Assembly: GCA_963843375.1 (NCBI GenBank)
Contig: CAWJKT010000018.1
Coordinates: forward strand, 1 to 64,000
From: an uncultured Pseudomonadota bacterium
GTDB taxonomy: Bacteria > Oederibacteriota > Muellerivitia > Muellerivitales > Muellerivitaceae
DNA length: 64,000 nucleotides
Direction: 5' to 3'
Below are positions 2,388-62,467 of this stretch, one piece after another (position 1 is the stretch's first letter; every line of letters starts with the position of its first letter). The notes under the pieces were generated by a model. That model saw only the letters and a program-made list of their open reading frames with translations. It was not told the origin of the DNA and did not search any database. A program made the translations under genes and the position numbers.

Positions 2388-2390
2388 AGG

Positions 2391-13200: not shown

Positions 13201-16200
13201 CCGCCACCGATACTGCCACGAACACGCCGACGAACACTGCGACGGCTACGGCCACCAGCACGGCTTCGAACACGGCGACGAATACGGCTACCGCCACGGC
13301 TACCGGAACCCCGACGAATACGGCGACGGTGACGGATAGCTTTACAGCGACGAATACCGCCACCGACACGGCTACACCGACTCAAACGAACACTCCGACG
13401 AACACAGCCACCCTGACGCCCACGGGCACATCGACCAACACGGCCACGGATACGGCCACGGCGACCGCCACCAATACCGCTACGAACACTTCGCTGAATA
13501 CGGCGACCAATACCGCCACCGATACTGCCACGAACACGCCGACGAACACTGCGACGGCTACGGCCACCAGCACGGCTTCGAACACGGCGACGAATACGGC
13601 TACCGCCACGGCTACCGGAACCCCGACGAATACGGCGACGGTGACGGATAGCTTTACAGCGACGAATACCGCCACCGACACGGCTACACCGACTCAAACG
13701 AACACTCCGACGAACACAGCCACCCTGACGCCCACGGGCACATCGACCAACACGGCCACGGATACGGCCACGGCGACCGCCACCAATACCGCTACGAACA
13801 CTTCGCTGAATACGGCGACCAATACCGCCACCGATACTGCCACGAACACGCCGACGAACACTGCGACGGCTACGGCCACCAGCACGGCTTCGAACACGGC
13901 GACGAATACGGCTACCGCCACGGCTACCGGAACCCCGACGAATACGGCGACGGTGACGGATAGCTTTACAGCGACGAATACCGCCACCGACACGGCTACG
14001 CCGACTCAAACGAACACTCCGACGAACACAGCCACCCTGACGCCCACGGGCACATCGACCAACACGGCCACGGATACGGCCACGGCGACCGCCACCAATA
14101 CCGCTACGAACACTTCGCTGAATACGGCGACCAATACCGCCACCGATACTGCCACGAACACGCCGACGAACACTGCGACGGCTACGGCCACCAGCACGGC
14201 TTCGAACACGGCGACGAATACGGCTACCGCCACGGCTACCGGAACCCCGACGAATACGGCGACGGTGACGGATAGCTTTACAGCGACGAATACCGCCACC
14301 GACACGGCTACACCGACTCAAACGAACACTCCGACGAACACAGCCACCCTGACGCCCACGGGCACATCGACCAACACGGCCACGGATACGGCCACGGCGA
14401 CCGCCACCAATACCGCTACGAACACTTCGCTGAATACGGCGACCAATACCGCCACCGATACTGCCACGAACACGCCGACGAACACTGCGACGGCTACGGC
14501 CACCAGCACGGCTTCGAACACGGCGACGAATACGGCTACCGCCACGGCTACCGGAACCCCGACGAATACGGCGACGGTGACGGATAGCTTTACAGCGACG
14601 AATACCGCCACCGACACGGCTACGCCGACTCAAACGAACACTCCGACGAACACAGCCACCCTGACGCCCACGGGCACATCGACCAACACGGCCACGGATA
14701 CGGCCACGGCGACCGCCACCAATACCGCTACGAACACTTCGCTGAATACGGCGACCAATACCGCCACCGATACTGCCACGAACACGCCGACGAACACTGC
14801 GACGGCTACGGCCACCAGCACGGCTTCGAACACGGCGACGAATACGGCTACCGCCACGGCTACCGGAACCCCGACGAATACGGCGACGGTGACGGATAGC
14901 TTTACAGCGACGAATACCGCCACCGACACGGCTACACCGACTCAAACGAACACTCCGACGAACACAGCCACCCTGACGCCCACGGGCACATCGACCAACA
15001 CGGCCACGGATACGGCCACGGCGACCGCCACCAATACCGCTACGAACACTTCGCTGAATACGGCGACCAATACCGCCACCGATACTGCCACGAACACGCC
15101 GACGAACACTGCGACGGCTACGGCCACCAGCACGGCTTCGAACACGGCGACGAATACGGCTACCGCCACGGCTACCGGAACCCCGACGAATACGGCGACG
15201 GTGACGGATAGCTTTACAGCGACGAATACCGCCACCGACACGGCTACGCCGACTCAAACGAACACTCCGACGAACACAGCCACCCTGACGCCCACGGGCA
15301 CATCGACCAATACGGCCACGGATACGGCCACCAATACGGTTTCAAACACCCCAACCAATACGGCAACGGCAACGGCAACGGGCACGCCGACGAATACCCC
15401 AACAGGTACCGCCACCGATACCGTCACCAATACCCCAACCGATACAGCCACCCAAACTCAAACGAATACGCCGACAAACACGGCCACCCTGACGCCCACG
15501 GGCACACCGACCAATACGACGACAGATACAGCGACTAATACACTAACGGCCACGGCCACTTCCTCGGCAACAGCCACTGCGACCGGTACGCCCACGAACA
15601 CTGCGACCAACACACCCACTTCCACGACAACGGCCACGCCTACGAATACGACCACATCTACTGCTACGGGTACGTCCACGAATACAACGACCAGTACCCC
15701 AACTTCGACTATGACGCCCACGGCCACGAATACGGCCACTTCCACGGCCACCGGCACTTCCACTAAAACGGCGACGAATAGCCCCACCGCAACCGCAAGT
15801 AGCACTGCGACCCACACCACTACTTTTACCTTTACAGGTACTCCTACCCGCACACTGACTTCTACAGCCACTTTTACACCCACCGCGACCCTGACCAACA
15901 GCCCGACTTTCACCGTGACCGCCACAGCCACGAAGACCGCTACCAACACGCCGACCTATACATTCACCTATACGGCCACTCCGTCACCCACATTCACCAT
16001 GACCTTTACGCCGACTCCAACGCCTTTCCTGACCTTGTCGAAGACCGCTCCGGCCACGGCCCAACCCTTGAGCGACGTTCCCTATACCTTGACTTATTCA
16101 AACCTGAATTCAGCTGGAGTTTCCGATGTGGTGGTCACCGATTCCTTGCCAGCAACAACGGCGGGTACCTATGTCACCGGATCTGCTTCCGGTGGAGGGG

Positions 16201-17333
16201 TTTATAATTCCGCAACCAACCTTCTGACTTGGACAATTCCCTATGTTCCGGGAAATACGACAGTCCAACTGACATATGAATTGCAAATGGCCATGATGGC
16301 GGCCGAATACAACCCAGTGGTGAATACCGCCCAATTGACTTACTTTGGAGGTGGAGTCGTCACGGCTACAAATTCAGTCAGTATTATTGGAAATTATGTA
16401 GTCAATCTATCCGTCTATAACGGTGCTGGCGAAATCATCAAGACCATCGCCGTCTTTACGACCAACATTCCGATTTCAGATTTTTCCGTGACCGGAGGAG
16501 TTATCACCACAAACTCGGGCGTCGCCCAGTTCTTCTACAACGGGATTCTTATTGGAAGCTGGGATGCGACGTCCACATCGGGCCAGAAAGTGACCAACGG
16601 CGACTACATGGTGAAAATAAATAGCACCGATCCCATGGGTGTGGTCACGACCGTAATTCATGATGTCACGGTTGATATCAGCAGCAGCACCCTGCAAATC
16701 GCGGTGTACAACGGAGCCGGGGAAGCCGTGAAGACTTTCAGCCAGGCGCAGTTGGCGAATCTGTTGACGGGCGGTTCCATCCTGCCATCGGATTACAACG
16801 TCACCGCAGCGAAGCTCTCGAGCCAGACCATCGACCCGACTTATGGAGCACCCACAAGCGCGGATAATTTGCTCACTATCACTCTGGGTTCTGGCGACAG
16901 CTTTACTTGGAATGGAAGGGGAAACAACGGGGCAATCTTAACACCCGGCGTCTACTTCATCGAAATCCAGTCCCAACTTCCAGGTCAAGCGTCCCAGCAG
17001 ATCACAATGGAAATTCGTGTAATCGCAAACAATTCCAATAATGTCTCGGGAATTGTTCTGGGCCCCAATCCAATCCATTTGAGCCAAACCACCCAGGCAC
17101 AATTCTTTATCAATAACACGAACCTTCAATTCGACACGGTTCAAGTCCGGCTCTATACCGTGGCGGGCGAACTGATGAAGACACTCGTGAGTGAGCCAGG
17201 GAATCCCTCAGTGGTAGTTTGGGATCTCAGCGGTGGCGGGGTCGCAAGCGGTGCCTATTTAGCGGTGGTGGAACTTCAATCCAATGGCGGCCTCGTTGGA
17301 AGGCAAATCTTAAGAGTGGTGGTTCTCCACTAA
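7239..17333 (+). CDS. Giant (3364 aa) secreted/surface protein: signal peptide, Cys-rich N-terminal domains (DUF11-like, CBM3-like), about 2200-aa (T-x)n stalk, DUF11-like domain, FlgD-Ig-like/T9SS-CTD-like C-terminus
   Basis: Uninterrupted ORF with hydrophobic leader [13 protein letters not shown]. Motifs are [41 protein letters not shown] and [24 protein letters not shown]. The C-terminus reads [32 protein letters not shown]. Domain names come from motif recognition, not from a search. Confidence 0.85.
9740..10190 (+). repeat. Degenerate 48-bp coding tandem repeat ([16 protein letters not shown])
   Basis: The 16-aa unit recurs about 8 times in the translation, with synonymous divergence in the DNA. 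Confidence 0.75.
10270..12480 (+). repeat. 300-bp coding tandem repeat in A-B-A-B order, followed by a roughly 384-bp duplicated variant
   Basis: Lines at 10441/11041 and 10741/11341 match (period 300, super-period 600). CCGCCACCAGCACGGCTTCG recurs at 11641 and 12025. Confidence 0.8.
12729..15330 (+). repeat. 312-bp (104-aa) near-perfect tandem repeat, 8 full copies plus a partial copy
   Basis: Identical antisense ORFs recur every 312 bp from 12758 to 14942. The only difference I noticed between units is a synonymous GCTAC(G/A)CCG. Confidence 0.95.
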
Positions 17334-18730: not shown

Positions 18731-18760
18731 TTGTCCAGGATGAATCCCCTGATTGGACAA
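18731..18760 (-). repeat. 30-bp palindromic site (same family as the 47-60 kb array), inverted orientation
   Basis: Plus strand TTGTCCAGGATGAA-TC-CCCTGATTGGACAA, which on the minus strand is TTGTCCAATCAGGG-GA-TTCATCCTGGACAA. It lies 56 bp upstream of the minus-strand ycxB-like start. Confidence 0.8.
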
Positions 18761-47183: not shown

Positions 47184-47215
47184 CCGTCCACGCCGGGGGG
47201 ACCCGGTTTGGACGA
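47184..47215 (+). repeat. Palindromic array site 1 (two extra G, possibly a homopolymer error)
   Basis: CCGTCCACGCCGGGGG-GA-CCCGGTTTGGACGA. Confidence 0.8.
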
Positions 47216-47339
47216 TCTTTGACACGCCAAAAAGCCGTAAAAAGGCTATTTAAGCTGCCCACGATTGGGCCCTTGTCGCGAAATAAACAAACGATGTTCG
47301 ACACTATAAATTGAGGGAAAAATAATTTTGGGGTGTCTT

Positions 47340-48431
47340 ATGAAAAGTTATCTAGGTTTTTTACTCGCGTTTTCCGCCTTTGGGATACTTAGTTTTGAGG
47401 GCTGTACAAAGACGTCAACGCTGACCGAACCCGTAGCCAGCGCTCTCTCCTGGAAAACCATGGGAAGCCCTTTCAGCACCGGAACGGTCTACTGGAACTC
47501 GATTTACGTTACCAACGGCACGCCCTATATCGTTTTCGCCCAACCTTCAAGCTACGACCTTTCAGTCGACGAATACACGGGTGGCTCCTGGGTACCTGTG
47601 GGCAGCCCGTCTTTTAGCCCCGAGGCCAGTTTCCAAAATATCACGGTCTATAACGGTATGCCTTACGTGGGTTTTGAGCAGTCTACTAACGGCGGGGTGG
47701 CCTCGGTGATGGATTTAACGGGCGGAACGTGGAACTACGTAGGGGGTGGGAACCTAACAACGACCCAAACCGTTTATGATTCCATGGCCATCGGGTCCGA
47801 TGGAACGGTTTATATGGCCTTCGATGATTCCACGGGCAACACCGCAGTCATGAGCAACAGCGGGGGCACCTGGAAACAATTGGGTGGTGACCTTTCCACC
47901 GGCGGTTCCAACTATGTTTGGATGGCCATGAATGGCACCACGCCCTACGTGGCTTACCAAGACGAAGGCGCCGGAGGCAAGGCGACGGTCATGACCTGGA
48001 ACGGAAGTTCTTGGACTCCCGTGGGCACGCCGGGCATTTCCCAGGGCGAGGCTTATGACGTGGTCCTCAGCGTCAGCAACGGCACACCCTATATTTCCTA
48101 CCAGGACGGCAGCAACAACTTGGGCATCAGCGTGATGAAGTTCAACGGAAGTTCCTGGGCCTACTTGGGAGCACCGGGTTTTACTAATCAATGCGATTAT
48201 CAGTCGATTTTCGTGGACAACGGAGTTCCCTATCTTGCGTACGAGGACAAGATTGCCGGAAGCGGAAAGGGCATCGTGGTGAAGTATATCTTATCGGCCT
48301 GGGTGACCGTAGGAAGCGCGGACTTTACGCCTGAAGTGATGGAGGACGTTTCCCTCTACGTTGACAACGGCACGCCTTACGTAATCTACGACATTGGTCC
48401 TCCGGGTTTCCGGGTGATGGGCTACTACTAA
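47340..48431 (+). CDS. Lipoprotein with about 48-aa beta-propeller-like repeats
   Basis: Lipobox-like SFEGC and repeated NGTPY(V/I).(Y/F).D.....VM...G..W..VG...F units. Confidence 0.8.
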   Translation: MKSYLGFLLAFSAFGILSFEGCTKTSTLTEPVASALSWKTMGSPFSTGTVYWNSIYVTNGTPYIVFAQPSSYDLSVDEYTGGSWVPVGSPSFSPEASFQNITVYNGMPYVGFEQSTNGGVASVMDLTGGTWNYVGGGNLTTTQTVYDSMAIGSDGTVYMAFDDSTGNTAVMSNSGGTWKQLGGDLSTGGSNYVWMAMNGTTPYVAYQDEGAGGKATVMTWNGSSWTPVGTPGISQGEAYDVVLSVSNGTPYISYQDGSNNLGISVMKFNGSSWAYLGAPGFTNQCDYQSIFVDNGVPYLAYEDKIAGSGKGIVVKYILSAWVTVGSADFTPEVMEDVSLYVDNGTPYVIYDIGPPGFRVMGYY

Positions 48432-48490: not shown

Positions 48491-48520
48491 TTGTTCAAAA
48501 CGGGGGCCTAGAGTGGACAT
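48491..48520 (+). repeat. Palindromic array site 2
   Basis: TTGTTCAAAACGGG-GG-CCTAGAGTGGACAT, 59 bp after the stop at 48431. Confidence 0.7.
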
Positions 48521-48685
48521 GTAAAAAGAAAACTTTGATGCTTATTTTTTCTTCGAATCCACTAGACTTTCTCATGGTCAAAAATAACTTTTAAAGAGTC
48601 AAACAATTCCTGAATAATCCGTAGCATCTACAAACCCTAGCCTTTGTAGCGTCAGCGTTTTTAGCAGGCTTGGTGGCGGTAGGTT

Positions 48686-48968
48686 ATGCGGGTCTTTTTA
48701 AAATATTTGAGGGTTTTTATCACCAAATTTCAACGGCTCATCCCTTTGGATTTGGTTCTGGACCCCTCTTTGCCTGCTGGCTGGCTGGGCCATGGTTTAT
48801 TTTCTTGCGACGGATGGTGTTGACGGACTTTTGTCTATCAAAGTAGTGGAGAATTTGAGGAATGTTCGCCAGCAGGAGATCGAATTTTTCAAGCAGAACG
48901 GTCAAAAACAAATCACTCCCGACCAAGAGAGCCAGTTGACGGCAATGTTGCAAAGGAATCCGATCTAA
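48686..48968 (+). CDS. Probable small membrane protein, frameshifted and missed by the ORF track
   Basis: MRVFLKYLRVFITKF.. then, in a shifted frame, LWIWFWTPLCLLAGWAMVYFLATDGVDGLLSIKVVENLRNVRQQEIEFF..RNPI*. Confidence 0.4.
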
Positions 48969-49021
48969 ATAAAAATCATATTTAATGCCCGATCAGCGGC
49001 ATTTCCAACATTCCGATTCTT

Positions 49022-49051
49022 CCCTCCGTAACGGGAGCCCGTTGCGGACAA
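49022..49051 (+). repeat. Palindromic array site 3
   Basis: CCCTCCGTAACGGG-AG-CCCGTTGCGGACAA. Confidence 0.65.
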
Positions 49052-49397
49052 ATTTATTCGGGAAACCCCAACGGAATAATTCTAGGTTTAACCTTCCAGT
49101 TGTCGTTGGAACCGGTTCCATTTTAAAAAAATGAGCTCAGGTTTTTTTTACGGGATAAAAATTAAGATCGAAGTGGAAAGGAGTTGGCTGCAAAGGATAT
49201 GATGCCAAGTAATTTCTGGACGATTTCGAAGCCCTAATAAAAAAGAACCCCAGAGTACAGAATTTTCGTAGTAAGGTTTTTGACGCTGAAAAATAAATAA
49301 ATTTCTTTCTGGCTTCCCGCACTACTTGACCTCTGGGGTAAAAAAAATTTAATTTAGAACATCTTAAAACGTTATTTTAAAAGAAAGGTCCCCGCCC

Positions 49398-51647
49398 TTG
49401 AAGCCGATCCTTCCTTCCGGCCCCGCCGGAACCCTTTTAAGGGTCTTCTTTCTTCTCTTGTCCGGTCTTTGGGTTTCCCAAGCGGTGGCTCAGACCACCG
49501 CCACCTGCGCCCAGTACGATACCATCAGCACGACCGGTTCCCCCGCCTACAACGTTCAGACAAATTATTGGAACGAAGGCACTTGCGCGGGCACCCAATG
49601 CGTGACCATCAACGACGCCACCGGGGCGTTCGGTGTCACCGAGGCCACATTCAACTGCGGATCCACCGTGGCCAGCTATCCCTCCATTTATTATGGTTGC
49701 CACTTCGGCGATGCCAGCCCCGGCACCAATCTCCCCATGCTGGTCAGCAACCTTACCTGTGTCACCTCCAGTTGGAATTTCACCCCTCCTGCGGACACGA
49801 CGGGGGATTCCTTCGATATCGCCTATGACATCTGGTTCGCCCCCGCCAGCCAACCTACCTGCGCCGATGACAGTGGCGGTTACGACAATGGAGCGGAGCT
49901 GATGATTTGGTTGAACTATGTGGGCGACACGCCCCTGCCTACGGCTTCGGTGACCGTTGCCACTGGCATTTCCCTGGCCGGATATACATGGAACATCTAT
50001 GAAACACCTTCGTCTACCCTCGGGTGGACTTACATGTCCTACCAAATTACCCCTAACGTCACCTCGGTTAGCAACTTGGATCTCTTGGACTTCTTTAAGG
50101 ACGCCCTTTCCCGGGGTTTTATCGAAAATACTTGGTATCTCGCCGCCGTCGAGGCCGGCGACGAGTTGAGGACGGGGGGGGTGCCTTTTGTCAGCAACTC
50201 CTACTCGGTGGCCGTCAATAGCGGTTGCACCGTCGTACCCACCTCCACTCCCGGCAATACCTCCACGGCCACTCCGACCTTTACCTTCAGTTCCACTCCC
50301 TCCTCCACGGCCAGCGCCACGCCTACTTCAACGAAAACCGTCACCAGCACCCCAACAAACATTTTTACGAACAGCCCGACGAGTACCCCGACCTCCACAG
50401 TGACGTATAGTTTGACGCCCACTCCTTCACGCACTGCCAGTGCCACGCCGACCTCGACGAAAGCTCCCACCAGCACCTCAACCGCCACGCAGACGGATAG
50501 TCCGACTCAAACTTCGACGGATTCGACGACCCCGACCGATACCAACACCGCGACTGTTACGCCGTCCCTCACCGCTTCGGCTTCACCGACGCCAACTGCC
50601 ACCAGTTCGCCCACTACAACTTCCACCGATAGCCCGACCAATACGTCCACGAACACGGCAACCTCAACACCTACTTTCACTCCGACGAATAGTCCCGTGG
50701 CCACACCGACTCATACCATGACTAGCACGCCCACTCCGACTCCGCCTACGACCTATACCGCTACGAATACACCCGTCTATACCGAAGCCAACACGGCGAC
50801 CAGCACGGCAACAACGACTGCCACCAATACGGGCACGAATACGGCAACGTATTCCGCGACAACAAGCCCCACCAAAACATCTACGGCGACCGCTACCAAC
50901 TCTCAAACCAATATATCGACCGCCACCCCGACCAACACAGCCACCAATAGTCTGACGGCCACCTCTACGAACAGTCCTACTTCAACCTCGACCCTTACCC
51001 CCACCGTCACCCCAACCCTTACGAACACCGAAACCAACAGCCCGACCCAAACCCCAAGTAGCACGGAGACCCTTCCTCCCACCAACACCCTTACCAATAG
51101 CCCGACGGGCACTTTTACGTATTCGATGACCGCTTCGCCGTCCTTCACGGCTTCGCCTACGCAAACGGCTACCACGACGAACACGCCAACCGCGACAGCT
51201 TCGGCCACGCCATTCTTGACTCTCGCTGCGTCCAATAGCTCCACCTCCACGGCCGTCCCCACTTCCACTAATAGTCCTACGCTCACCAACTCACCGACGG
51301 TGACGAACAACGCTACAGTTTCGACCACACCCACAAAATCCCCGACCCAAGTCTCGACGGGGGTTGTCATAGGAATTCCTTATCCCAATCCCGTGAAGGG
51401 TTCGGGCCCAGTGACCCTCCCGCTACAATTACCCCCCGGCTCCACGTTCGAATGGAGCGTTTTTACGACAGCCTTCCGCAAGGTCCTGGATATTCCCAAT
51501 CCCATTTTGGGCGATAGCGCGGTCCTAGTCTGGAACTTGGACGATGCTTGGGGAAAACCGGTGGCCAGCGGTCTTTACTACCTGAGGGTCCAGGTCGCCG
51601 GTCCGGTCAAAACCTCCAAAATTCTGAAGGTTCTGGTGATCCGCTAA
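49398..51647 (+). CDS. Secreted glycoside hydrolase family 12 (endoglucanase-like) with Thr-rich stalk and FlgD-Ig/T9SS-CTD-like C-terminus
   Basis: YNVQTNYW, SYPSIYYGCHFG, DIAYDIWF, GAELMIWLNY (nucleophile Glu) and WYL.AVEAGDE (acid/base Glu). The C-terminus reads PYPNP..VFT.AFRKV..WN..D.WGKPVASGLYY..KILKVLVIR. Confidence 0.88.
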   Translation: MKPILPSGPAGTLLRVFFLLLSGLWVSQAVAQTTATCAQYDTISTTGSPAYNVQTNYWNEGTCAGTQCVTINDATGAFGVTEATFNCGSTVASYPSIYYGCHFGDASPGTNLPMLVSNLTCVTSSWNFTPPADTTGDSFDIAYDIWFAPASQPTCADDSGGYDNGAELMIWLNYVGDTPLPTASVTVATGISLAGYTWNIYETPSSTLGWTYMSYQITPNVTSVSNLDLLDFFKDALSRGFIENTWYLAAVEAGDELRTGGVPFVSNSYSVAVNSGCTVVPTSTPGNTSTATPTFTFSSTPSSTASATPTSTKTVTSTPTNIFTNSPTSTPTSTVTYSLTPTPSRTASATPTSTKAPTSTSTATQTDSPTQTSTDSTTPTDTNTATVTPSLTASASPTPTATSSPTTTSTDSPTNTSTNTATSTPTFTPTNSPVATPTHTMTSTPTPTPPTTYTATNTPVYTEANTATSTATTTATNTGTNTATYSATTSPTKTSTATATNSQTNISTATPTNTATNSLTATSTNSPTSTSTLTPTVTPTLTNTETNSPTQTPSSTETLPPTNTLTNSPTGTFTYSMTASPSFTASPTQTATTTNTPTATASATPFLTLAASNSSTSTAVPTSTNSPTLTNSPTVTNNATVSTTPTKSPTQVSTGVVIGIPYPNPVKGSGPVTLPLQLPPGSTFEWSVFTTAFRKVLDIPNPILGDSAVLVWNLDDAWGKPVASGLYYLRVQVAGPVKTSKILKVLVIR

Positions 51648-51710
51648 AGCAGTCCGCTGAAATGAAAATTTTTATCTGAAATAAAGTTCATTAAAAATCT
51701 TGAAAAGTGT

Positions 51711-51740
51711 TTGTCCACGACGGAGACTCAGATTGGATGA
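51711..51740 (+). repeat. Palindromic array site 4
   Basis: TTGTCCACGACGGA-GA-CTCAGATTGGATGA, 63 bp after the stop at 51647. Confidence 0.85.
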
Positions 51741-52376: not shown

Positions 52377-52406
52377 TTGTACACGATGGGGACCCGTAAT
52401 GGACAA
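52377..52406 (+). repeat. Palindromic array site 5
   Basis: TTGTACACGATGGG-GA-CCCGTAATGGACAA, 30 bp before the start at 52437. Confidence 0.9.
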
Positions 52407-52436
52407 TCAAACCTTTAAAATGAAAGAACGGTTTTC

Positions 52437-52934
52437 GTGAATTATCTAACCCTCTTTGACATAACAACCGTAGGGTATAAGTCCCTGCCTTCCTTAGGAC
52501 CCGGCTTTATCATTTTCTGTGTTGGGTTGCTGGTTTTTTTCGCCAATGAAAAGTTAAAAAATAGGATTTTTGGACCGTTTTGGACTAAGTCAAGGTTAAG
52601 GATCTTTTCAATCATTTATACCGGTTTTGCGGCTCTTTTTTCTATTTCCGGATTAGTACATACCTACTCTGATTATTCCAGACTGAAAAGCGCATTTTTG
52701 AACAATCAGTGTGAAATAGTCGAGGGTGTGGTCACTCAATTCGTACCCATGCCCGTTACAGGCCATGCCGATGAAAGTTTTACCGTAAACAATCATAGTT
52801 TTAGGTATTCAGATTACGAATTAACGGCGGGATTCAATAATACACAATCCCATGGTGGGCCGATCAAAGCAGGCTTACAAGTTCGTATTCATTGTCTAGG
52901 GAACGAAATCGCAAAATTGGAAATCGCCAGATAA
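52437..52934 (+). CDS. Hypothetical membrane protein (two transmembrane helices plus a small beta domain)
   Basis: 165-aa AT-rich ORF filling the interval between sites 5 and 6. Confidence 0.75.
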   Translation: MNYLTLFDITTVGYKSLPSLGPGFIIFCVGLLVFFANEKLKNRIFGPFWTKSRLRIFSIIYTGFAALFSISGLVHTYSDYSRLKSAFLNNQCEIVEGVVTQFVPMPVTGHADESFTVNNHSFRYSDYELTAGFNNTQSHGGPIKAGLQVRIHCLGNEIAKLEIAR

Positions 52935-52963
52935 AAGAAAACGTGAACAAACGGTTTTCGGGA

Positions 52964-52993
52964 TTGTCCACGGCGGGGACGCAGAAGGAACAA
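52964..52993 (+). repeat. Palindromic array site 6
   Basis: TTGTCCACGGCGGG-GA-CGCAGAAGGAACAA. Confidence 0.88.
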
Positions 52994-53033
52994 TTGCAAA
53001 GAGATTAAATGAGGTTCTTGGGAGGGAGTATTT

Positions 53034-53861
53034 ATGATTTTTTTGAAGTTTCCATTTCTTTGCCTAATTGCGGCATTGGGTATTTATTTTGTAAATTTTA
53101 AATATGGAATTTCACAAACAAATCCAACCCCAGAAATGAACGTTCCAATCACGATTCTGCAAAAACCTGTCCTGGTACGATTGAAACAAACAAAAGATGA
53201 TGTTTTCTTAATCAGTGTTGATTTCGGAAAAGACCATTTTTCTTTCAAGTCCGAAGGCTATGACAATTCCTTGCCCGAATATTTAAAAACGTTCGGGTGG
53301 AAAGAAAATTATTTATTTGTTCATCAGTGGAATGGTTGTGGGAGTTGCCATAAAGGGGTTGTGGATCGGGTTTATAAAATCATAAACGGTCATCTGGTTG
53401 AATTGGGTGAAATACGGTCGCCCGAAGATGCGAAATCCCCTGGGGAAGAATATAACAATGGTTTATTTGAAGATTTGTATAACAAGTTTGAGGGCACTGA
53501 TTTAACAGCGCATGTACATAGTCCCGATATGTTATTAGCGTTGAGGGAAAGTGAGGGAAAGTTGCTTGTCGATTTGCGTGAAACATGGTTAAAAAATGAA
53601 ACTGAGTATTTAGAAACGAACGGCAAACTCGAAGCGTTTTCCACCCCGACTGGCAAAGAAAACGATCGACAAGAATCACCACTTTGGATGATTTTGGGAA
53701 ACGGTGTTGTGGCCAAATATTGCAAAAAGAGCAAAGAGTTAAATAAAACAATGCAACAGGCCAAAAGGCTTTTAACGAACGAAGATATTAAAAAAATTAG
53801 ATCTGTTTTGAATGAAGTTATTCCTGGAGAATTAAGTCCTAGAGAAGATGAAATGCCCTAA
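53034..53861 (+). CDS. Hypothetical secreted protein
   Basis: 275-aa AT-rich ORF with an N-terminal hydrophobic segment and RBS GGAG, filling the interval between sites 6 and 7. Confidence 0.75.
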   Translation: MIFLKFPFLCLIAALGIYFVNFKYGISQTNPTPEMNVPITILQKPVLVRLKQTKDDVFLISVDFGKDHFSFKSEGYDNSLPEYLKTFGWKENYLFVHQWNGCGSCHKGVVDRVYKIINGHLVELGEIRSPEDAKSPGEEYNNGLFEDLYNKFEGTDLTAHVHSPDMLLALRESEGKLLVDLRETWLKNETEYLETNGKLEAFSTPTGKENDRQESPLWMILGNGVVAKYCKKSKELNKTMQQAKRLLTNEDIKKIRSVLNEVIPGELSPREDEMP

Positions 53862-53868
53862 TGGGTGG

Positions 53869-53898
53869 TTGTCCACGGCGGGGAACCGTCGTGGACAG
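53869..53898 (+). repeat. Palindromic array site 7
   Basis: TTGTCCACGGCGGG-GA-ACCGTCGTGGACAG, 7 bp after the stop at 53861. Confidence 0.92.
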
Positions 53899-54090
53899 GT
53901 AAAGTAAGATGATATTATGTGACTGCCACAAATCGACCTAATTTTTTGTATTAAAATTGTTTTTAGAGGTATGCCGGTATTTGTGCGATTTAAGGATAAA
54001 ACAAGAAGTGATAATAATTTGTTAAATTTGTCCGAAGGGTCAAAAAGTCATTGGACTTTCTTGAAGAATTATTAGAATGTAAATATATGG

Positions 54091-57000
54091 TTGTCAGATA
54101 TTTTTTTGGGGTCAATAGTGTTTTATAAAGTAGGTATATCTTTCTTTAAAAAAAATATTTTTTTCCTTTCGTTTGCTTGTGCTATTTGGCTGTTTGGGCA
54201 TGACGCCGCAGCTCAAACTTTCCCGCTACCCATCCCAACCGTTTGTATTTGCTTGGACAGCGGGGATGGGGGGGATTTGATTGTCTCGGATGTGGCCAAT
54301 CCCCAGGATGTGGGTTCCATCGCACCCGTGGTTAGCGTGAACCCCTATCCAGGTTGGTTTCCTGCCTGCGGAAATTCCAACTTTATTTCGGATAACACTG
54401 CGGGGTTAGTTACGCCTGCGACAAGTGAAGACACCAACCAAATTGTTGTCCAAAGAACACTCAACCTTAGTTCCTTAACTGCCTCTCAACTGGCCCAAGT
54501 GACTTTCAGCCTTAGCGTCAAAGCAGACGACGCCATAACGGTTATCGTGAATAACAATTCCGGCAGTCCGGCATTGAGCTGCGGGGGGGTGAGTTTACCG
54601 GCTTGTTTTCTCAACGGTTGCGACACGCTAACGGGCACCAATAGCGGCGCTTTTCAAAACCAATTCACTGCCGGCTTTAACACTGTCGATTTCGTCATCC
54701 AGGATATTTACGGCGGCCATATCGCGGGGGATTTTGAGCTTTGCGCCTGTTATCCGGCGCCTTCGCCCACGGCCACCTTAACCCCCACCGAAACCTCAAC
54801 CAACACCCAAACGAATACCGACACCTTGACCCCAACCAGTTCCACAACCTACACTCCCAGCCCGACGCCGACACTCACTCCCACTCCGACCGCAACCAAC
54901 ACCCAAACGAATACCGACACCTTGACACCGACCAGTTCCGCCACCTACACACCCAGCCTGACGCCGACCATCACTCTTACCCTTACCCCCACCGATACAG
55001 CCACGAATACGCCCACCTCAACTCCGCCGGGTTGCTATAGCTTGTCGCAAGTCCTGCCTATCAATAAATCCGTGGCGCCCGCAAGGATCCAGGGACCTTC
55101 GGACGTGGCGGTAGACCCCACAACGGGGGACTTATTCACCGTGGGTTCAGATAATGCGAAAGCCGGATTTTCTAACCAGATCGTGGTGAAGTCCGACCCT
55201 GCGGGGAACTTTATCATGTCCTGGGCCGTTCCCGGCGTGGCGATGGCGGCCCATCTAAGCACGGATTTGAATGGAAACGTTTATGTGGGATACCAAACGA
55301 CGGCTGGGCGGAATTTCGTCCAAGAATACAGTTCCGTTGGAACGCCCATCGGCGGTCCTCTGGGCCCCTTCGGCACGATCGATCTCTTTATGGCGAACGA
55401 CCCAGTTACCGGAGACCTCTATGTGCTGGATGGTTACCTGGTCTATCGTTATGGCCCGGGCAATGTATCCTTGGGCCCACCCTTCACCCTTTCCCGGACG
55501 TTATTCCGTTCGGGAGCAACCACCGGCATCGCCATCGACGGATCCCAGAACATCTATATCGGGGACAACGGCACGCGAAGCGTGGTGGAGATCAGCGAAA
55601 CGACAGGCCTCCTTGAAAAAACCATTTCCTTGCCGGTCGGTAGCGGAGTAGAGGACCTAGCTTGGGATCAGGCTACGAACCAACTTATCGTTGGTTATAT
55701 CAACCATTTCCAGGCGATCGACAGCAATGGAAACTTGGCGGGCACCTTTGCGGGTTCCGGTCAATTCACCGATTTGACGGGAGTGGGAGTTGACCCCAAC
55801 GGCTGTGTCCTGGCGACCGTCGACACGAGTAGGGACGTAGAACGTTGGTGCCCTTGCTACCTCCCAACGAAAACTCCAACCGATTCGCCTACCGCCACTC
55901 CAACCCTAACTCCGGAAGCCACCGCCTGTTTCAAATACGTTTCGGTCCTGGGGGCCTTTGGCGGCGGGGCGGCTCCGGGAGACCTAGCACTGCCGTACAC
56001 CGACACGGTGGACGGATCGGGCAATGTTTTTGTGCTTAACGGTTCGGCGGGGAATAAAACCCTTATCACTAAATACAATTCCGCGGGGAAATATGTCCTT
56101 CAATGGACCGTCCCATTCAATGACGGACCGGGGGGCTTCATCGCCGCCAACAGCAAGGGCGATGTTTACCTAGTCTATCCAACAGGAGATGGCGTTTACT
56201 CGATCCAAGAATACGGCCCAACCGGTATGCCCCTCGGGGTCCCCTTCGGCCCCCTTGACAACGTAGCGGGTATCGCTATCGGCCCGGGCGATCGGCTGTA
56301 TGTCCGAACCTTTCCCCCCACGAACGAAGGTCAAGGAGATGTTTGGGTCTACAACTCCTCCAACGTCCTCTTGCCCGACAGTTCATTTACTTACCCCGGC
56401 CCAGGCGGCGGATTCGGGATCACCGTGGATCTTTCAGGTAATGTTTATCTTGCAGGTATTGAGAATGGAATGCGGGAATACAATGCCGGCGGGCAATTGA
56501 TCAATCAATTCAAGGCGAATTCGGCCGTGCAAATCGCCTTTGACAATGTGACAAATGAGGTCCTGTCCACGGACGGCTCCAAGGTTTATATCTATAGCCC
56601 GGGCGGGCTATCCTTGGGATCTTTCGGAGTTGCCGGGACGGGCCCCGGAAAGTTTATTTATGCCGACGCGGTCGCTGTGGACCAGTCCACTGGCTGCGCC
56701 TATGTAGTGGATCCGGACCAGCAAGTGGTGGAGAAGTGGTGCCCGTGCGGATCTGGCGGCACCTCAACAAACACCGCTACCAATTCGCCCACCTTCACTG
56801 TGAGCCAAACAAGGACGTCTACGGGCACTTCGACAGTTACTTTCACCTTAACCTTGACAGGGACCTTTACAGCCACCCCAACTCCCACCCCTTCACCGAT
56901 CCCTTCCAACACTCCAATAAGCTCGGCTACCTCCACGGCATTCTCGACGGCCACCGGTTCGCCCACTCCTAGCCCCACTCCGACGGAAACTCTGAGTCCC

Positions 57001-58458
57001 ACGGGAACGGAGACCCCCACCCCGACAGAGACCAATACCGCCACGAATACGGCGACCCTTTCCCCAACCCTTAGCCTTACCCCAACGGAATCCAATACGC
57101 AAACAAATTCAGCCACCCTTACCCCTACTTTTAGCGTTACCCCGACGGCTTCCCCGACAACCACCGGTTCGGTCACCTCCACGGCAACCTTTACCCCAAC
57201 CTTAAGCTCCACTTTAACGGCAACCTTGACTGCGACCACTACTTCCACTTTCACCATAACTTCAACTGCGGCTTGCAAATGTGTCGGGTCATTTACTTCC
57301 TCCCGGGACGTGAACAATATCCTCTTTCCGGCTCCAGGAGAATTTTGTTATTTCGTCAATCTGGGTATAACTTTCTCAACATGTTCGGGAAATATCCCCG
57401 TTTCTTTCTATGCCACCAGTACGAACGGAGACATATATACTCCCAGCACTATATCGATCACCCTTTCCTCGGCCAATAATTTTACCTTCGAAGAACCGGT
57501 CACCTTTTGCGGACCACTGGTCCCGGGAAATGTCATCACCATATTCGCCGCCTTTCCGGGAACTTGTTATGAGACCACCAATTTTGGAACCGAAACCGTC
57601 GTCGCCCCTACTCCTACTCCAACGATTACTTCCACCCCCAGCTGTAGCTGTTCTTCCTTTAACTTTAACTCTTGCGCGACGAGTGCAACCTCGATCGGTT
57701 CACAGTCGGGCTGCTACAAGGTTTTAGTGAATTATCAATGGACAAGTTGCGCATTGCTCACCGGGTTCCCGGTTTCTTTCTTTGTGACCTCGGCCAGCGG
57801 CGATTACACCATCAGTCCGGATTCGGTTACTTTCGGCGCCTGTGGGGCTGTGCCCTGTGCGGGGGCGGTGGCGGATTTCCCCTTCACCATTTGTGGCCCG
57901 TCGTTAAGCGGAAATCCAGTGACCATCAATTTCCTCAATCCCAGCGGAACCCTTTGCGACGGACCGGGTCAATGCGGACCTATCTTGTTGCCCACTTTTA
58001 CCACCACTCCCACTGCCACGAAATTGCCGACTAACTCGCCAACCCCGACACCGACCTTTACACCCACCAGTACACCTATCGCGATGGCCATGGCTTCCCG
58101 GTCAGACTTCATACAAGCCTCAAGGTTGAATCCGAACTCCACCGGGAGCCCCTCCAACACTTCCGGGTTGTTGGGGAATGTGGCGGCCCTGCCCAACCTT
58201 TCAAGAGGGTTCGAGCCGATCAAGTTCGAGGTTATTCTGGGACATCCGGCCCAGTTAACTCTTATCATCTATAGTTTGTCTGGGGAGAACCTTTATTCGA
58301 CAGTTTGGGAAGGTAACGCTGGAGTGAACCAATGGGTTTGGAATCTGGAAAACCGCTTTTCCCAACAAGTGGCCAGTGGACTTTATATTTATTTGATCGA
58401 GGCCAACGACGGGCAAATACGAGAATTGGAAACGGGAAAACTGGTTATCCTTCACTAG
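54091..58458 (+). CDS. Large secreted multidomain protein: two NHL/beta-propeller-like regions, Cys-rich modules, Thr-rich linkers, FlgD-Ig/T9SS-CTD-like C-terminus (start approximate)
   Basis: [22 protein letters not shown] and FG..G.GPG.F.Y..AVAVD repeats, with T-x linkers. The C-terminus reads LPN...[35 protein letters not shown]. Confidence 0.82.
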
Positions 58459-58557
58459 AATGTTTAATGCAGGTTTTCTAATCTTCGGCTTACTGGAAAC
58501 AAAATCATTTTTGAAAGGACAGGAACGCACTTGGGTTTATTTGAGTAAGTAAATAAG

Positions 58558-58587
58558 TTATCCACGATGGGGAGCCGGATTGGACAA
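58558..58587 (+). repeat. Palindromic array site 8
   Basis: TTATCCACGATGGG-GA-GCCGGATTGGACAA. Confidence 0.9.
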
Positions 58588-58608
58588 GTTTCTTCGAGGG
58601 AGTATTAA

Positions 58609-58707
58609 ATGAAACGGTGTATTTTGACCGGTAGCCGGGTTCCGGTAAGGCGTCGATACTCCACGCCCTGAAGGCGGAAGGCTATCCGGCCATCAAGGAG
58701 GCATTAG
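58609..58707 (+). pseudogene. 5' remnant of a P-loop (AAA_28-like) ATPase/kinase gene
   Basis: RBS GAGGGAG and ATG. Restoring one base gives MKRCILTGxPGSGKASILHALKAEGYPAIKEA (Walker-A-like), and the resemblance then ends. Confidence 0.5.
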
Positions 58708-59385
58708 GTGAAGCGTTGTTTCCTTTTGCTGTTCCTGGCCTGTTTTCAGGTGTCCCTCGCCTGGGGGCAGGCAGAGTATTCCCTCCCCAATTCCGGGCAA
58801 ATCCAGGTAGGTTCGAATTATTTTGGACAATCGTTGGGCCTCTCCTATTCCCGGGATTTGGCCGGGCCCCTTTGGGCCGATTTCGCCCTGGAGACCCAAA
58901 GCATTTCTTTCCAGTCGGTCGCTGGCCAGACTTTTTTCGTGTTTAACAACAATTCCTACACTAATTTCAATATCGGCCTGGACGTCCATGATTTCGTCAC
59001 AATGGACCTATCCTTCCACCGCTCTGATAAATGAGTTTTCCGTATCCTCAATTCGCTGGCGGTCGGCATCACCCATTTTGACATGACCTTCCACCTTTCC
59101 TTCAACGGGGCGGACCCTTCCGATACTTTCCAGGGGCAGAGGGACATTTCCGCTTTCGCGCTTTATACGGACCTTCACCTGCTCGATTTTTACCCGCCTC
59201 ACGACAAACTCTTCTTTTCTCTGGGAATCAAGGGCAATACCGCCTTCCTTTCCAGCCCGCAAACGGTGAACGCCACGGATGGTTCGGGGGGAACCGCCTT
59301 TATTTCCTATTCCAGCGGGAACGGAGGGGCGATCATGTTTCCGGATTTGGAATTGTACCTAGGCCTTGGCTATGGTTTCGAATGA
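58708..59385 (+). pseudogene. Secreted beta-barrel-like protein with an in-frame TGA at 59032-59034
   Basis: Signal peptide. ORFs 58708-59034 and 59083-59385 are in the same frame, and the protein ends in LYLGLGYGFE. Confidence 0.55.
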
Positions 59386-59414
59386 TCGGGAGTAAATACG
59401 GAAAGCGGAGGGGG

Positions 59415-59444
59415 CTGTCCACGGCGGGGACCCGGATTGTACAA
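59415..59444 (+). repeat. Palindromic array site 9
   Basis: CTGTCCACGGCGGG-GA-CCCGGATTGTACAA. Confidence 0.92.
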
Positions 59445-59463
59445 AATTAACCGGAGATAAGAT

Positions 59464-59706
59464 TTGAAAATATTTAATAAATCCGTTCCTGTTCCAGTCT
59501 TAATAATTTTTTTAGGGTGGTTGGCTTTAATCTTTCAAGTATTTTTTTTCACGTTGGGCATGAGAATCGTTACCGATTGGGAAATTCGTTTTCTTTTATC
59601 CATGGGCATTGACCCGAAAGTTTTTTGGTGGATTTTCATTTTTTTAGTTGTGGTAATAAGTCCATTCTTTCTGAAGTATTACAACGATATCGAGAAAAAG
59701 AAATAG
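59464..59706 (+). CDS. Small two-transmembrane hypothetical protein
   Basis: 80-aa AT-rich ORF with a GGAG RBS, filling the interval between sites 9 and 10. Confidence 0.65.
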   Translation: MKIFNKSVPVPVLIIFLGWLALIFQVFFFTLGMRIVTDWEIRFLLSMGIDPKVFWWIFIFLVVVISPFFLKYYNDIEKKK

Positions 59707-59732
59707 TTGAGGTTTGGGGTGAAAGGTGGAGA

Positions 59733-59762
59733 TTGTTCGCGACGGGGACCCGGATTGGACAG
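59733..59762 (+). repeat. Palindromic array site 10
   Basis: TTGTTCGCGACGGG-GA-CCCGGATTGGACAG. Confidence 0.9.
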
Positions 59763-59867
59763 CGTGCCAGGATCAAGGATGCAGCAGCCAGCAGGTGCGG
59801 TTCGATATGAACCAAGTCCTGACGGGGTAACCGCCCGAGGGCCCCGAAGTCAACCTCCGTGGCAAGG
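59762..59867 (+). mobile_element. Possible 5' end (domain I start) of a group II intron, truncated at the adapter
   Basis: Begins GCGTGCCAGG (GUGYG-like). Contains CAGGTGC[GGTTC-GATAT-GAACC]AAGTCCTG, resembling the GGTGNAAGTCC stem, and a CGGGG..CCCCG stem followed by AAGT. Confidence 0.4.
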
Positions 59868-59927
59868 AGCAATATCGTTTTTTTTTTTTTTTTTTTTTTT
59901 TTTGTACACGTTCAGCTTCGTATTGCT
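59868..59927. other. Oxford Nanopore ligation-adapter-like sequence; chimeric junction (artefact)
   Basis: AGCAATATCG, then T26, then GTACACGTTCAGCTTCGTATTGCT. The known adapter is (T)n..GTACTTCGTTCAGTTACGTATTGCT, and its reverse complement begins AGCAATACG. GC content and codon style change abruptly here. Confidence 0.9.
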
Positions 59928-60754: not shown

Positions 60755-61006
60755 CGCCCCACCTGCCCCACCTGCCGCGGAAGGTGGGGCGCGGAAAAAG
60801 GATAGACGAAACAACGATGTGCCCCACCTGCCCCACCTGCCCCACCTGTTTCCTCGCGCGTGCGCGCGAGCGTGCGCCCCAGGTAGGACTACCTTTTCCA
60901 CTTTTTCTCAAAATAGGTGGGGCAGGTGGGGCAGGTGGGGCAACGCCTTTTCCGTCAACGGGTTGCACGCGCCCCACCTCAAACGGAAGGTGGGGCAAGG
61001 TGGGGC
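60755..61006. repeat. Iteron-like 9-bp CCCCACCTG direct and inverted repeats (putative element replication origin)
   Basis: Two copies at 60756, three at 60821, three inverted at 60915-60941, and further copies at 60782 and 60970-61005. They lie immediately after the primase/helicase gene. Confidence 0.7.
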
Positions 61007-61220
61007 GCGGCCGGGGCGACTGCGCCCGAGAGGACCTATCGACGATCGCGCCGCGGTATCGCGCTAGAACGCGCGCCACCGTGGCGCGCATTGGATATGC
61101 GCTTCAGTGTGAAGCGCATATCGCCAAGCTGCTCCGCCGTGAGGACGCCTGTCGGTCCAGGGGTTTGGGCCACGGTGGCGCAAACCCCGCCACGTGGGCG
61201 GTCACCCGCCGGTCGCCGCC

Positions 61221-61583
61221 GTGATCTCGGAAGACGCGCTCGCTCCCCGCGCTCGCGTCGCCGAGGTTGCGGCGGCGCTTTGCCTGTCGCCACGTGCGGT
61301 GCAGGCGATGGCGGCGCGCGGCGACTTGCCGGGCGCGGCGCAGATCGGCAAGCTATGGACGTTCGATCGAGAAAAGTTGCGGCGCTTCATCGCCGCCAAG
61401 GAGCGCGCATGCGCGAGCGAAACCTCTACCAGCGGGGCGGCATTTGGTGGTTGCGAGCCTCCGTCGACGGAGTCGAACGCCGCGAAAGTTTACGAACGCG
61501 CGATGTCAAGACTGCTCGGAGGATCCGGGACGCGCGGATCGAGGCGTTCACCGCGGCTGCGTTCCGGGGCGAAAAGCGCGTAA
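61221..61583 (+). CDS. Excisionase-like helix-turn-helix protein overlapping the integrase 5' end
   Basis: VAEVAAALCLSPRAVQAMAARGDLPGAAQIGKLWTFDREKLRRFI. Confidence 0.8.
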   Translation: MISEDALAPRARVAEVAAALCLSPRAVQAMAARGDLPGAAQIGKLWTFDREKLRRFIAAKERACASETSTSGAAFGGCEPPSTESNAAKVYERAMSRLLGGSGTRGSRRSPRLRSGAKSA

Positions 61584-62467
61584 GCTGGAAAGAGGCGGTC
61601 GCCGCCTGGGCTGAGCATGAGGCCGTCCAGATCGCGCCGTCGACGGCCAGGCGCTACGCGGTCAGCCTCCTGCAGTGCGAGCCGTTCCTCGAGTTCGTTC
61701 GCCGTCGACGAGATCGACGGAAAGTCCATCTCAGCGCTGATCGCCGGGCGACGGAAGCTCGGGGCGACCCCGGCGACGGTCCGCCGCGACCTGACGGCGG
61801 TCTCCCGGGTCCTCGAGCACGCCGAGGCCGAGGGCTGGCGGGAGGGCAACCCGACGCTGTCGAAGAGGAAGCTGCTCAAGGAGCGCCGCGACCCGATCGT
61901 CCTTCCCGAGCGGGCGGCGATCGAGGCCGTGATCGACGCAGCCACGCCCCGCTTCGGCGCGCTGATCCGCGCCGCCGAGCTCACCGGCGCACGCCAGGAC
62001 GAGCTCGTGCGCGCGACTTGGCGGGCCTTCAACCCGCGCGCCGCCACGCTCGAGATCATCGGCAAGGGAAGGAAGCGCCGCACCATCCGCCTCGACGAAG
62101 CCGCGGCGGCACATTTTCGGCACAGCCGCGGACCCTCGGCGCCGAGCAGCGGATATTCTGCCGCGAGGGCGGCCTGCCGTTCGCCCAGGCCGCGAGCGAC
62201 TTCACCCATCTGCGCCGCCAGGTCGAGGCCCAGGCCGAGCGAGAGGGCCAGCCTTTTCGCCGCTTCCGCTTTCATGACCTGCGCCATCTCTACGCCGTCG
62301 AGGCCCTCCGCCGAGGCGTCGGGATCTATGACCTGTCGAAGCATTTGGGGCACACGTCGGTGAAGACAACCGAGATCTATCTTGCCTTCCTGACCTCGGA
62401 TGAGGCAGAACGAGCCAAGGCCTCGACGGCACAAATTCCGGCACAGTCACGGCGGTTCGCAGGCTGA
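61409..62467 (+). CDS. Phage-type tyrosine integrase, two compensating frameshifts (about 61695 and 62118)
   Basis: NLYQRGGIWW..RESLRTRD, AELTGARQDEL (Arg), GKG.K.R, FHDLRH, HLGH.SV.TTEIY. Confidence 0.9.
   Translation: MRERNLYQRGGIWWLRASVDGVERRESLRTRDVKTARRIRDARIEAFTAAAFRGEKRVSWKEAVAAWAEHEAVQIAPSTARRYAVSLLQCEPFLEFVRRRRDRRKVHLSADRRATEARGDPGDGPPRPDGGLPGPRARRGRGLAGGQPDAVEEEAAQGAPRPDRPSRAGGDRGRDRRSHAPLRRADPRRRAHRRTPGRARARDLAGLQPARRHARDHRQGKEAPHHPPRRSRGGTFSAQPRTLGAEQRIFCREGGLPFAQAASDFTHLRRQVEAQAEREGQPFRRFRFHDLRHLYAVEALRRGVGIYDLSKHLGHTSVKTTEIYLAFLTSDEAERAKASTAQIPAQSRRFAG

Follow-up and report, generated by a model that had tools for sequence, protein, structure and literature searches.

What looks like integron-like gene shuffling without an integron integrase: cassette arrays bounded by 30-bp sites in candidate division FCPU426

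The 64,000-bp stretch of DNA analyzed here (the window; positions 1 to 64000 of contig C18) comes from a metagenome-assembled genome of an uncultured peat-soil bacterium (4.05 Mb in 32 contigs, 80% complete) and carries a 30-bp near-palindrome nine times in the same orientation between 47.2 and 59.8 kb; all nine copies are on the + strand, each 10 to 100 bp past the end of a + strand open reading frame (ORF). We establish these sites and their anatomy, their conservation across the clade, the cassettes between them as units, the reassortment of the DNA on their two sides, and a junction at positions 13 to 18 of the site. The left arm (positions 1 to 12) travels with the upstream DNA and the right arm (positions 19 to 30) with the downstream DNA, and the exchange point, as read from these comparisons, lies within the invariant center. 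This looks like integron-like gene shuffling without an integron integrase. The explanation that we favor, with moderate confidence, is that the repeats are double-stranded core-type sites at whose center cassettes are exchanged by a tyrosine recombinase encoded in trans.

Flank reassortment and anatomy of the site

Two non-redundant sets of sites were compiled, one of 388 from the bacterium’s own genome, the array regions of six relatives, and species-collection loci, and one of 515, which adds 127 new metagenome sites to the former. When the 150 bp flanking a site on either side were compared with the corresponding flank of all other sites, 172 pairs among the 515 sites shared upstream DNA, 265 shared downstream DNA, and only 3 shared both; the smaller set agrees, with 107, 186, and 1 pairs, respectively. 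Two of the three pairs with both flanks in common are tandem duplicates 70 bp apart, and the third belongs to near-identical stretches. A first-pass annotation, made from the letters of the window, had proposed that the arms were reassorted by recombination, and both these counts and the way each arm follows its own flank bear this out.

The position of the junction was mapped by comparing, within clusters of sites with homologous flanks, the agreement at each position with that of shuffled sites (2000 to 3000 permutations; intron-followed sites were excluded from the downstream clusters). Upstream-homology clusters (48 clusters, 125 sites) show excess agreement at positions 1, 2, 5, and 7 to 12, plus position 22, and downstream-homology clusters (39 clusters, 112 sites) show it at positions 19 to 24, 26, 28, and 30, with small excesses also at positions 5 to 7 and 10. 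The same pattern was obtained from the 388-site set, and the metagenome-only clusters, too few to carry weight by themselves (4 upstream, 7 downstream), follow the same trend at positions 20 to 22. Because the left arm follows the upstream DNA and the right arm the downstream DNA, the exchange point falls at positions 13 to 18. This concordance is also the favorable outcome of a check proposed in the first-pass annotation, whether a cassette keeps its own upstream right arm and downstream left arm, and the right-arm variants do not follow the upstream gene, as an integron-like boundary at the right end would require.

Whole cassettes behave in the same way. Twenty-five pairs of complete site-to-site cassettes of nearly equal length recur in different arrays or genomes, with interiors that are 85% identical (median) and with the 45 bp outside their two sites at 24% and 29% identity, which is chance level. 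Five pairs have 0 to 3 mismatches over 386 to 1215 bp, among them one within a single genome (on two contigs) and one between genera g1 and g10, and their identity starts or stops within the 30-bp sites or right at their margins. Three of the five show a difference as early as position 1 (or 1 and 2) of the upstream site, and in three the copies diverge in the downstream site beginning at position 17 or 20; in one pair the switch comes exactly after GGGGA, with differences from position 17 on, and one also differs at position 11 of its downstream site, which we read as a point change. Cassette neighbors are essentially never conserved among the 388 sites, and no insertion or deletion of one cassette between the same neighbors was found among them.

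In content, the cassettes are integron-like: they encode GNAT acetyltransferases, PIN/Phd, YafQ/RelB, HigB, MazF, aldo-keto reductases, and many family-less ORFs, and the largest family among 780 ORFs has 8 members. Some site pairs lie only 70 bp apart from start to start (L163:6483/6553 and L177:974/1043), forming gene-less “cassettes” of about 40 bp.

The consensus of the site is TTGTCCACGACGGG-GA-CCCGTCGTGGACAA. Direct reading of the window copies confirmed the arm anatomy described in the first-pass annotation, with inverted repeats in the outer (TTGTCCA/TGGACAA) and inner (CGGG/CCCG) parts of the arms around a GA center. The same is true of the mixing of arms: left arm TGTCCACGGCGGG (sites at 52964, 53869, and 59415) is combined with three different right arms, left arm CACGATGGG (52377 and 58558) with two, and right arm CCGGATTG(G/T)ACA (58558, 59415, and 59733) with three different left arms. 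A GA center had been claimed for 8 of 10 array copies; we find it in 7 of 9 in plain register, or in 8 of 9 if the copy at 47186 is anchored on its right arm, and the copy at 48491 has GG. Conservation of the center in a larger sample, which had been suggested as a check, is clear, with GA in 489 of the 515 sites.

Across the 388 sites, positions 2 to 9, 12 to 19, and 24 to 29 are almost invariant. The left inner arm (positions 8 to 11, CGAC) is 83 to 92% conserved, whereas its mirror positions 20 to 23 are only 59 to 71% conserved, falling into the classes GTCG (128 sites), ATCG (45), TTCG (28), GGAT (27), GCAT (18), and others. Since the left arm is conserved and its mirror variable, the site is asymmetric in more than its center, and this asymmetry also holds in the 79 sites of the own genome alone. 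The “variable triplet” that had been placed between the repeats on both sides is therefore mainly a feature of the right arm. A further variant of the right half, GGGGA-GGY, differs from position 17 on and is present in 11 of the 388 sites.

The 79 sites of the own genome, counted by a weight-matrix scan (score of at least 22), form about seven arrays on contigs C6, C9, C10, and C18, plus a few singles. For presence and absence we used the 18-mer made up of the left arm and the center (TGTCCACGRCGGGGACCC, at most 1 mismatch), with the same pattern read backwards as control, in 41 genomes: the own genome, 24 relatives of its family (f1, candidate division FCPU426), 1 genome of the sister family (f2), and 15 others of the phylum. 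The own genome has 46 occurrences versus 0 for the backwards pattern, and the site is therefore not due to chance. The 18-mer is present in 24 of the 41 genomes (own included), namely in 21 of the 24 f1 relatives, in the f2 genome (one copy), and in one of the 15 other genomes of the phylum (G033, with one match that has 1 mismatch); the control gives 0 or 1 matches per genome. In the whole prokaryote collection (one genome per species), the perfect-palindrome form matches 71 stretches, about half of them titled candidate division FCPU426 and the rest bearing generic or other submitter labels. At least 158 stretches match in Joint Genome Institute (JGI) metagenomes, and the viral contigs of IMG/VR hold 0 matches to the 18-mer. 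The arrays are clusters of accessory genes, and sites are not found after genes in general.

Some sites are followed by an ORF-less group II intron of about 790 bp, which starts 0 to 1 base past site position 30 (C9:252515-253300, equivalent to L075:516-1300) and whose C9 copy scores 61.6 bits with RF02003 and 45.1 bits with RF00029 of Rfam. Introns are carried by 16 of the 515 sites, belong to two sequence families, and always run in the same direction as the cassette genes.

Candidate enzymes and competing explanations

Eight window sites (all except that at 47186) were folded as DNA and compared with shuffles. Seven of the eight are no more stable than most of their shuffled versions (z from -2.0 to +1.3), while the perfect palindrome folds at -14.9 kcal/mol. 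Mirror positions pair at the shuffled level (57.2% observed versus 55.3% for 10/21; 55.4% versus 57.1% for 11/20), and high mutual information is confined to positions within one arm. This is the breakdown of linkage between arms for which the first-pass annotation had proposed to look, and the compensatory hairpin changes that it had named as speaking against reassortment are not seen at mirror positions. Folded, the 30-mer makes one short stem only; its duplex form matches a single core site in size, read as 11-8-11 or 14-2-14. Given that the arms do not co-vary and most copies do not fold, we read the site as a duplex, which would be recognized by protein as double-stranded DNA.

In the mechanism that we favor, two inverted protein-binding arms would surround an invariant asymmetric center (GGGGACCC, with GA at the dyad), and the mobile cassette would consist of a right half-site, one or more genes, and a left half-site. 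Recombination between two directly repeated sites would cut within the center; excision would release the cassette, presumably as a circle that carries a single rebuilt site, and integration, the same reaction run backwards, would place it at any other site. Over many rounds this would build multi-cassette arrays and move cassettes between arrays and between genera. The enzyme would be a tyrosine recombinase encoded in trans, for which the site is 11-8-11 and the 8-bp overlap must be identical. The invariant 8-bp center fits such a homology requirement, which is typical of tyrosine recombinases, and has a parallel in the identical-spacer rule of Acinetobacter pdif sites.

The leading, if unproven, candidate is a single-copy, divergent Xer-type recombinase that takes the place of XerC/XerD in f1 and f2 (367 aa, C10:182366-183469 in the own genome). 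One ortholog of 350 to 380 aa is present in 23 of 24 f1 genomes and in the f2 genome. The best family matches of the 367-aa protein are XerC, XerD, and XerA, all below the cutoffs, and its best solved relative is XerA (4a8e). In the other families, all but two genomes have one or two XerC/XerD-like genes of about 300 aa (26 to 35% identity), mostly two, and G032 has no match. From these gene counts, f1 and f2 look as if they had switched, clade-wide, to a single-recombinase Xer system. The Xer-type gene and the site thus share their distribution over these two families.

A second lead, set aside as the cassette enzyme, is a P4-like integrase of about 370 aa with six paralogues in the own genome. 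Its distribution follows that of site-rich genomes in part, but copies are also present beyond the family and in the site-free G017, and it lies at the edges of ordinary variable islands. Three of the six paralogues have an isolated degenerate site within 1.4 to 3.3 kb (C9:31181-33692, C8:179354-183711, and C6:223092-227153), and one is 100% identical in protein sequence to a copy in G001, with flanking DNA about 90% identical. The notion that the site is a chromosomal dif was likewise abandoned, as the sole site of G025 and the small array of G003 are not at GC-skew switches. The families that recur near arrays are PIN, MazF, GNAT, NHL, and similar ones, none of them an enzyme candidate.

Several observations weigh against the favored explanation. 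The junction test gave small cross-arm signals, at position 22 with the upstream DNA and at positions 5 to 7 and 10 with the downstream DNA. No recombinase gene adjoins any array examined, the arrays of the own genome being flanked by housekeeping genes such as rpsP/trmD/rplS and ruvA/ruvC, and a tblastn search with seven recombinases of the own genome found no match in 70 metagenome loci (413 kb). The Xer-type gene is also present in G017, G019, and G024, all site-less by the strict 18-mer pattern (with a looser pattern, G019 and G024 have at most one diverged candidate site each and G017 none), so that its distribution does not discriminate. In G025, about 50 kb separate the only site from the closest GC-skew switch, so that this site is not a terminus dif site. 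The GGGGA-GGY class would be poorly tolerated by an 8-bp overlap that requires homology, and it fits a 2-bp crossover at GA. Finally, no excision product or empty junction was seen in the assembled contigs of four public sequencing runs. These were three of the five runs that hold at least half of the array’s sampled words, plus X6 (share 0.30), and their contigs match the array with 0 differences. Loose contig ends at 53867-53902, 59411-59445, and 59732-59761 belong to other arrays that share only the 30-bp site. A joint from 53903 to 59412 occurs in one contig with a 28-base side, too short to trust, and a second, from 55018 to 57031, falls within the 1455-aa ORF, which is rich in repeats.

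It is tempting to go further and see here an integron-independent system of chromosomal gene capture across the FCPU426 family, in which plain 30-bp duplex sites serve as joints for any cassette, a single housekeeping-type Xer recombinase moves the cassettes in place of a dedicated integrase, and the arrays are co-oriented with replication, yet we regard this wider proposal as doubtful. In the own genome, 62 of 75 sites are oriented with the leading strand, which was assigned from local GC skew, the exceptions being mostly at near-zero skew, and the same orientation is found for the single G025 site (on C27) and for four of the five G003 sites (on C1). Among long ORFs, only 67% (1577 of 2345) run with the leading strand. 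The test is weak, since the sites of one array do not count independently. On C6, two arrays converge near a cumulative-skew maximum, which is a single case.

Alternatively, the repeat could have another primary role, as a protein-binding, terminator-like, or repetitive extragenic palindrome (REP)-like element, with occasional RecA-type exchange within its 30 bp. We consider this unlikely: with its 30 bp, the repeat just reaches or falls short of the length that RecA exchange normally requires, only 3 of about 430 flank-homologous pairs keep both sides, cassettes with 0 to 3 mismatches are found in different genera, and the sites are clustered in accessory-gene arrays and do not stand behind genes generally. 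Most window copies are unfolded, with arms that do not co-vary, and the own genome, at 80% completeness, has no match to the Y1 (IS200/IS605-type, RAYT) transposase PF01797. What such a role would accommodate is the fact that no dedicated recombinase was identified, the location of the sites 10 to 100 bp past stop codons and their orientation with the ORFs, and the strong folding of the perfect palindrome; moreover, the longest identical stretch common to the sites is the center, so homologous exchange would map there too.

The comparison drawn in the first-pass annotation was with serine-recombinase sites; on such a reading, a small or large serine recombinase would bind the two 14-bp arms and make a 2-bp staggered cut at GA, with the direction set by the asymmetry of GA. 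As regards anatomy, this comparison stands: the site reads as 14-2-14, the non-palindromic GA is kept in 489 of 515 sites, the junction lies at positions 13 to 18, and one pair of identical cassettes switches exactly after GGGGA. It does not extend to the genes. Only 8 of the 21 site-bearing relatives gave a match to the Resolvase domain PF00239; the 13 that gave none include G002 (98% complete), G009 (97%), G021, G023, G005 (98%, with 40 matches to the 18-mer), and G010 (99%, with 31 matches). A 281-aa serine recombinase is encoded about 3 kb from the own-genome site C9:134161, yet no serine recombinase homolog was found in the 413 kb around metagenome sites, and eight central bases are conserved where a dinucleotide rule needs two. 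The GGY class, which keeps GA and changes positions 17 to 19, fits a 2-bp crossover better, and for this reason we keep a serine recombinase at low odds, as an improbable explanation. Our best guess as to enzyme class ranks the 11-8-11 reading by a tyrosine recombinase higher, given that Resolvase genes occur in so few of the site-bearing relatives.

A true integron, with short attC sites acting as folded single strands and an IntI-like integrase, would account for the co-oriented single-gene cassettes, which mostly lack promoters and carry the usual cargo of integrons, for group II introns at the sites, like the group IIC-attC introns at attC, and for a site orientation that tracks replication, but it is very improbable and already close to refuted, with the integron integrase model TIGR02249 above its 265-bit cutoff in 0 of 41 genomes (best score, 92.5 bits), a junction at the center and not at one end of the site, a folded form whose one stem of about 14 bp would be too short for two recombinase-binding boxes, no co-variation and mostly unfolded copies, and introns that run with the cassette genes where IIC-attC introns run opposite to them.

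The array in the window and its surroundings

The window copies were placed by fuzzy matching and direct reading, and all features of the array listed here are on the + strand. None of the cassette ORFs of the window has a Pfam match above the family cutoff. The first recognizable site (47186..47215) is degenerate, with one extra G (GGGGGGACCC), such that its right half scores and its left half is shifted by one base. It is followed by an ORF of 367 aa (47328..48431) and by a degenerate site with the GG center (48491..48520; score, 24.9). The next interval, of one or more cassettes (48521..51710), contains a 260-bp remnant homologous to a stretch of G010 and then a Thr/Pro-rich ORF of 749 aa (49398-51647), and ends at a site found by fuzzy match and weight-matrix scan (51711..51740).

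The site at 52377..52406, with left arm CACGATGGG and right arm CCCGTAATGGACAA, was identified by direct reading and by the scans. It precedes an ORF of 165 aa without Pfam match (52437..52934), a site with the rare right arm AGAAGGAACAA (52964..52993), and an ORF of 275 aa (53034..53861). The site at 53869..53898 is the only stable folder among the eight window copies folded (-13.7 kcal/mol as DNA). Then come a Thr/Pro-rich repeat protein of 1455 aa, again without Pfam match (54091..58458), and the site at 58558..58587, whose upstream 62 bp are homologous to the stretch preceding site C6:47247. The cassette at 58588..59414 has two short consecutive ORFs in different frames (58708-59034 and 59083-59385; 108 and 100 aa), which may be a frameshifted gene. 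After the site at 59415..59444, found by fuzzy match, the last cassette encodes a membrane-like protein of 80 aa (59464..59706), and the last site (59733..59762) has a degenerate left arm.

Directly after this last site, the 5' fragment of a group II intron (59763..59865) is 100% identical over its 103 bp to the start of the full copy of about 790 bp at C9:252515. A search of the window against Rfam returned only a tRNA-Ser at threshold, leaving the truncated intron unmatched. After the fragment come 12 bases of unusual sequence, about 29 consecutive T (59878-59906), and then DNA of 58 to 70% G+C; beyond the T run lie a DUF5906 fragment, a Phage_integrase ORF (60917-62467), and the tRNA-Ser gene (62502). 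Contigs of the four public runs cover the array and drop to a depth of about 0 beyond 60126, and one contig diverges after 59865. The window DNA after about 59866 is probably a chimeric assembly join.

Far from the array, an isolated weak copy of the site (18731-18760; score, 18.5) has GA as its center on the minus strand. At 7239-17333 lies an ORF of 3364 aa whose strand composition is extreme, with an AT skew as high as 0.66 and a GC skew as low as -0.5; its product is presumably a giant Thr/Pro-rich repeat protein of the type that the cassettes encode.

Relation to known cassette systems

Integrons are the textbook case of cassette capture, by a specialized integrase and folded attC sites, which are 57 to 141 bp long and carry an R''/R' consensus. 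Sedentary chromosomal integrons and integrase-less clusters of attC sites (CALINs) are among such arrays; the latter are reportedly treated in the IntegronFinder paper (PMC4889954). The arrays described here resemble integron arrays in their co-oriented, mostly single-gene cassettes that each end in a repeated imperfect palindrome, in a hypervariable cargo rich in toxin-antitoxin pairs, acetyltransferases, and unknown ORFs, in the presence of the same cassette in unrelated arrays and hosts, as the recurring pairs demonstrate, and in group II introns that target the repeats. They differ in that no IntI was found, the site has 30 bp instead of 57 to 141 bp and works without having to fold, exchange is at its center, the two half-sites of a site belong to different cassettes, and the arrays have no integrase, attI, or Pc platform next to them. 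As to the introns, group IIC-attC introns have the orientation opposite to cassette transcription (PMC3001079).

A second likeness is to the dif modules of Acinetobacter, which are bounded by pdif sites and moved by the host XerC/XerD (PMC13141974; see also PMC6449649, PMC7399989) and recombine inside pdif sites with identical spacers (PMC13141974). Like them, the system described here has modules bounded by two-armed sites of about 28 to 30 bp with a crossover inside the site, toxin-antitoxin modules as common cargo, and extensive shuffling, and it would likewise need matching centers or spacers and a recombinase encoded elsewhere in the host. A crossover inside the site between matching centers is what the junction test points to here as well. 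The pdif sites are 11-6-11, have distinct XerC and XerD arms, variable spacers, and alternating orientation, and are carried on plasmids. In contrast, the site studied here is a near-palindrome with an invariant center, is repeated directly on the chromosome, and accompanies a single Xer-type gene, whose role is conjecture; it is not an 11-6-11 dif-like site with XerC/XerD arms, and both its sequence and its spacing differ from the pdif table.

Among simple recombination sites, those of Cre/loxP and FLP/FRT are organized as 13-8-13, and hix and res site I are sites of serine invertases and resolvases. All of them share with our site the inverted arms around a short asymmetric center that sets direction, with direct repeats leading to excision and integration. 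They occur as one or a few sites beside their own recombinase, whereas here there are many per genome, 79 in the own genome, which act as general joints between cargo genes. A Resolvase gene does not accompany the sites wherever these are kept. The system works like an integron or like dif modules and is a member of neither. Full-text searching, with most subscription journals outside its coverage, found no description of it; among the papers listed for FCPU426, most are community or metagenome surveys, judging by title, and one is a single-cell genomics study.

The arm-follows-flank comparison maps a crossover without experiment and can be reused on other repeat-bounded arrays. For the enzyme hunt, the 30-bp site, with its invariant center and informative arm variants, provides a testable substrate. 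That the same array architecture is found in an uncultured soil phylum, with a short, double-stranded site cut in its middle and without the integron integrase, suggests that cassette platforms arose more than once.

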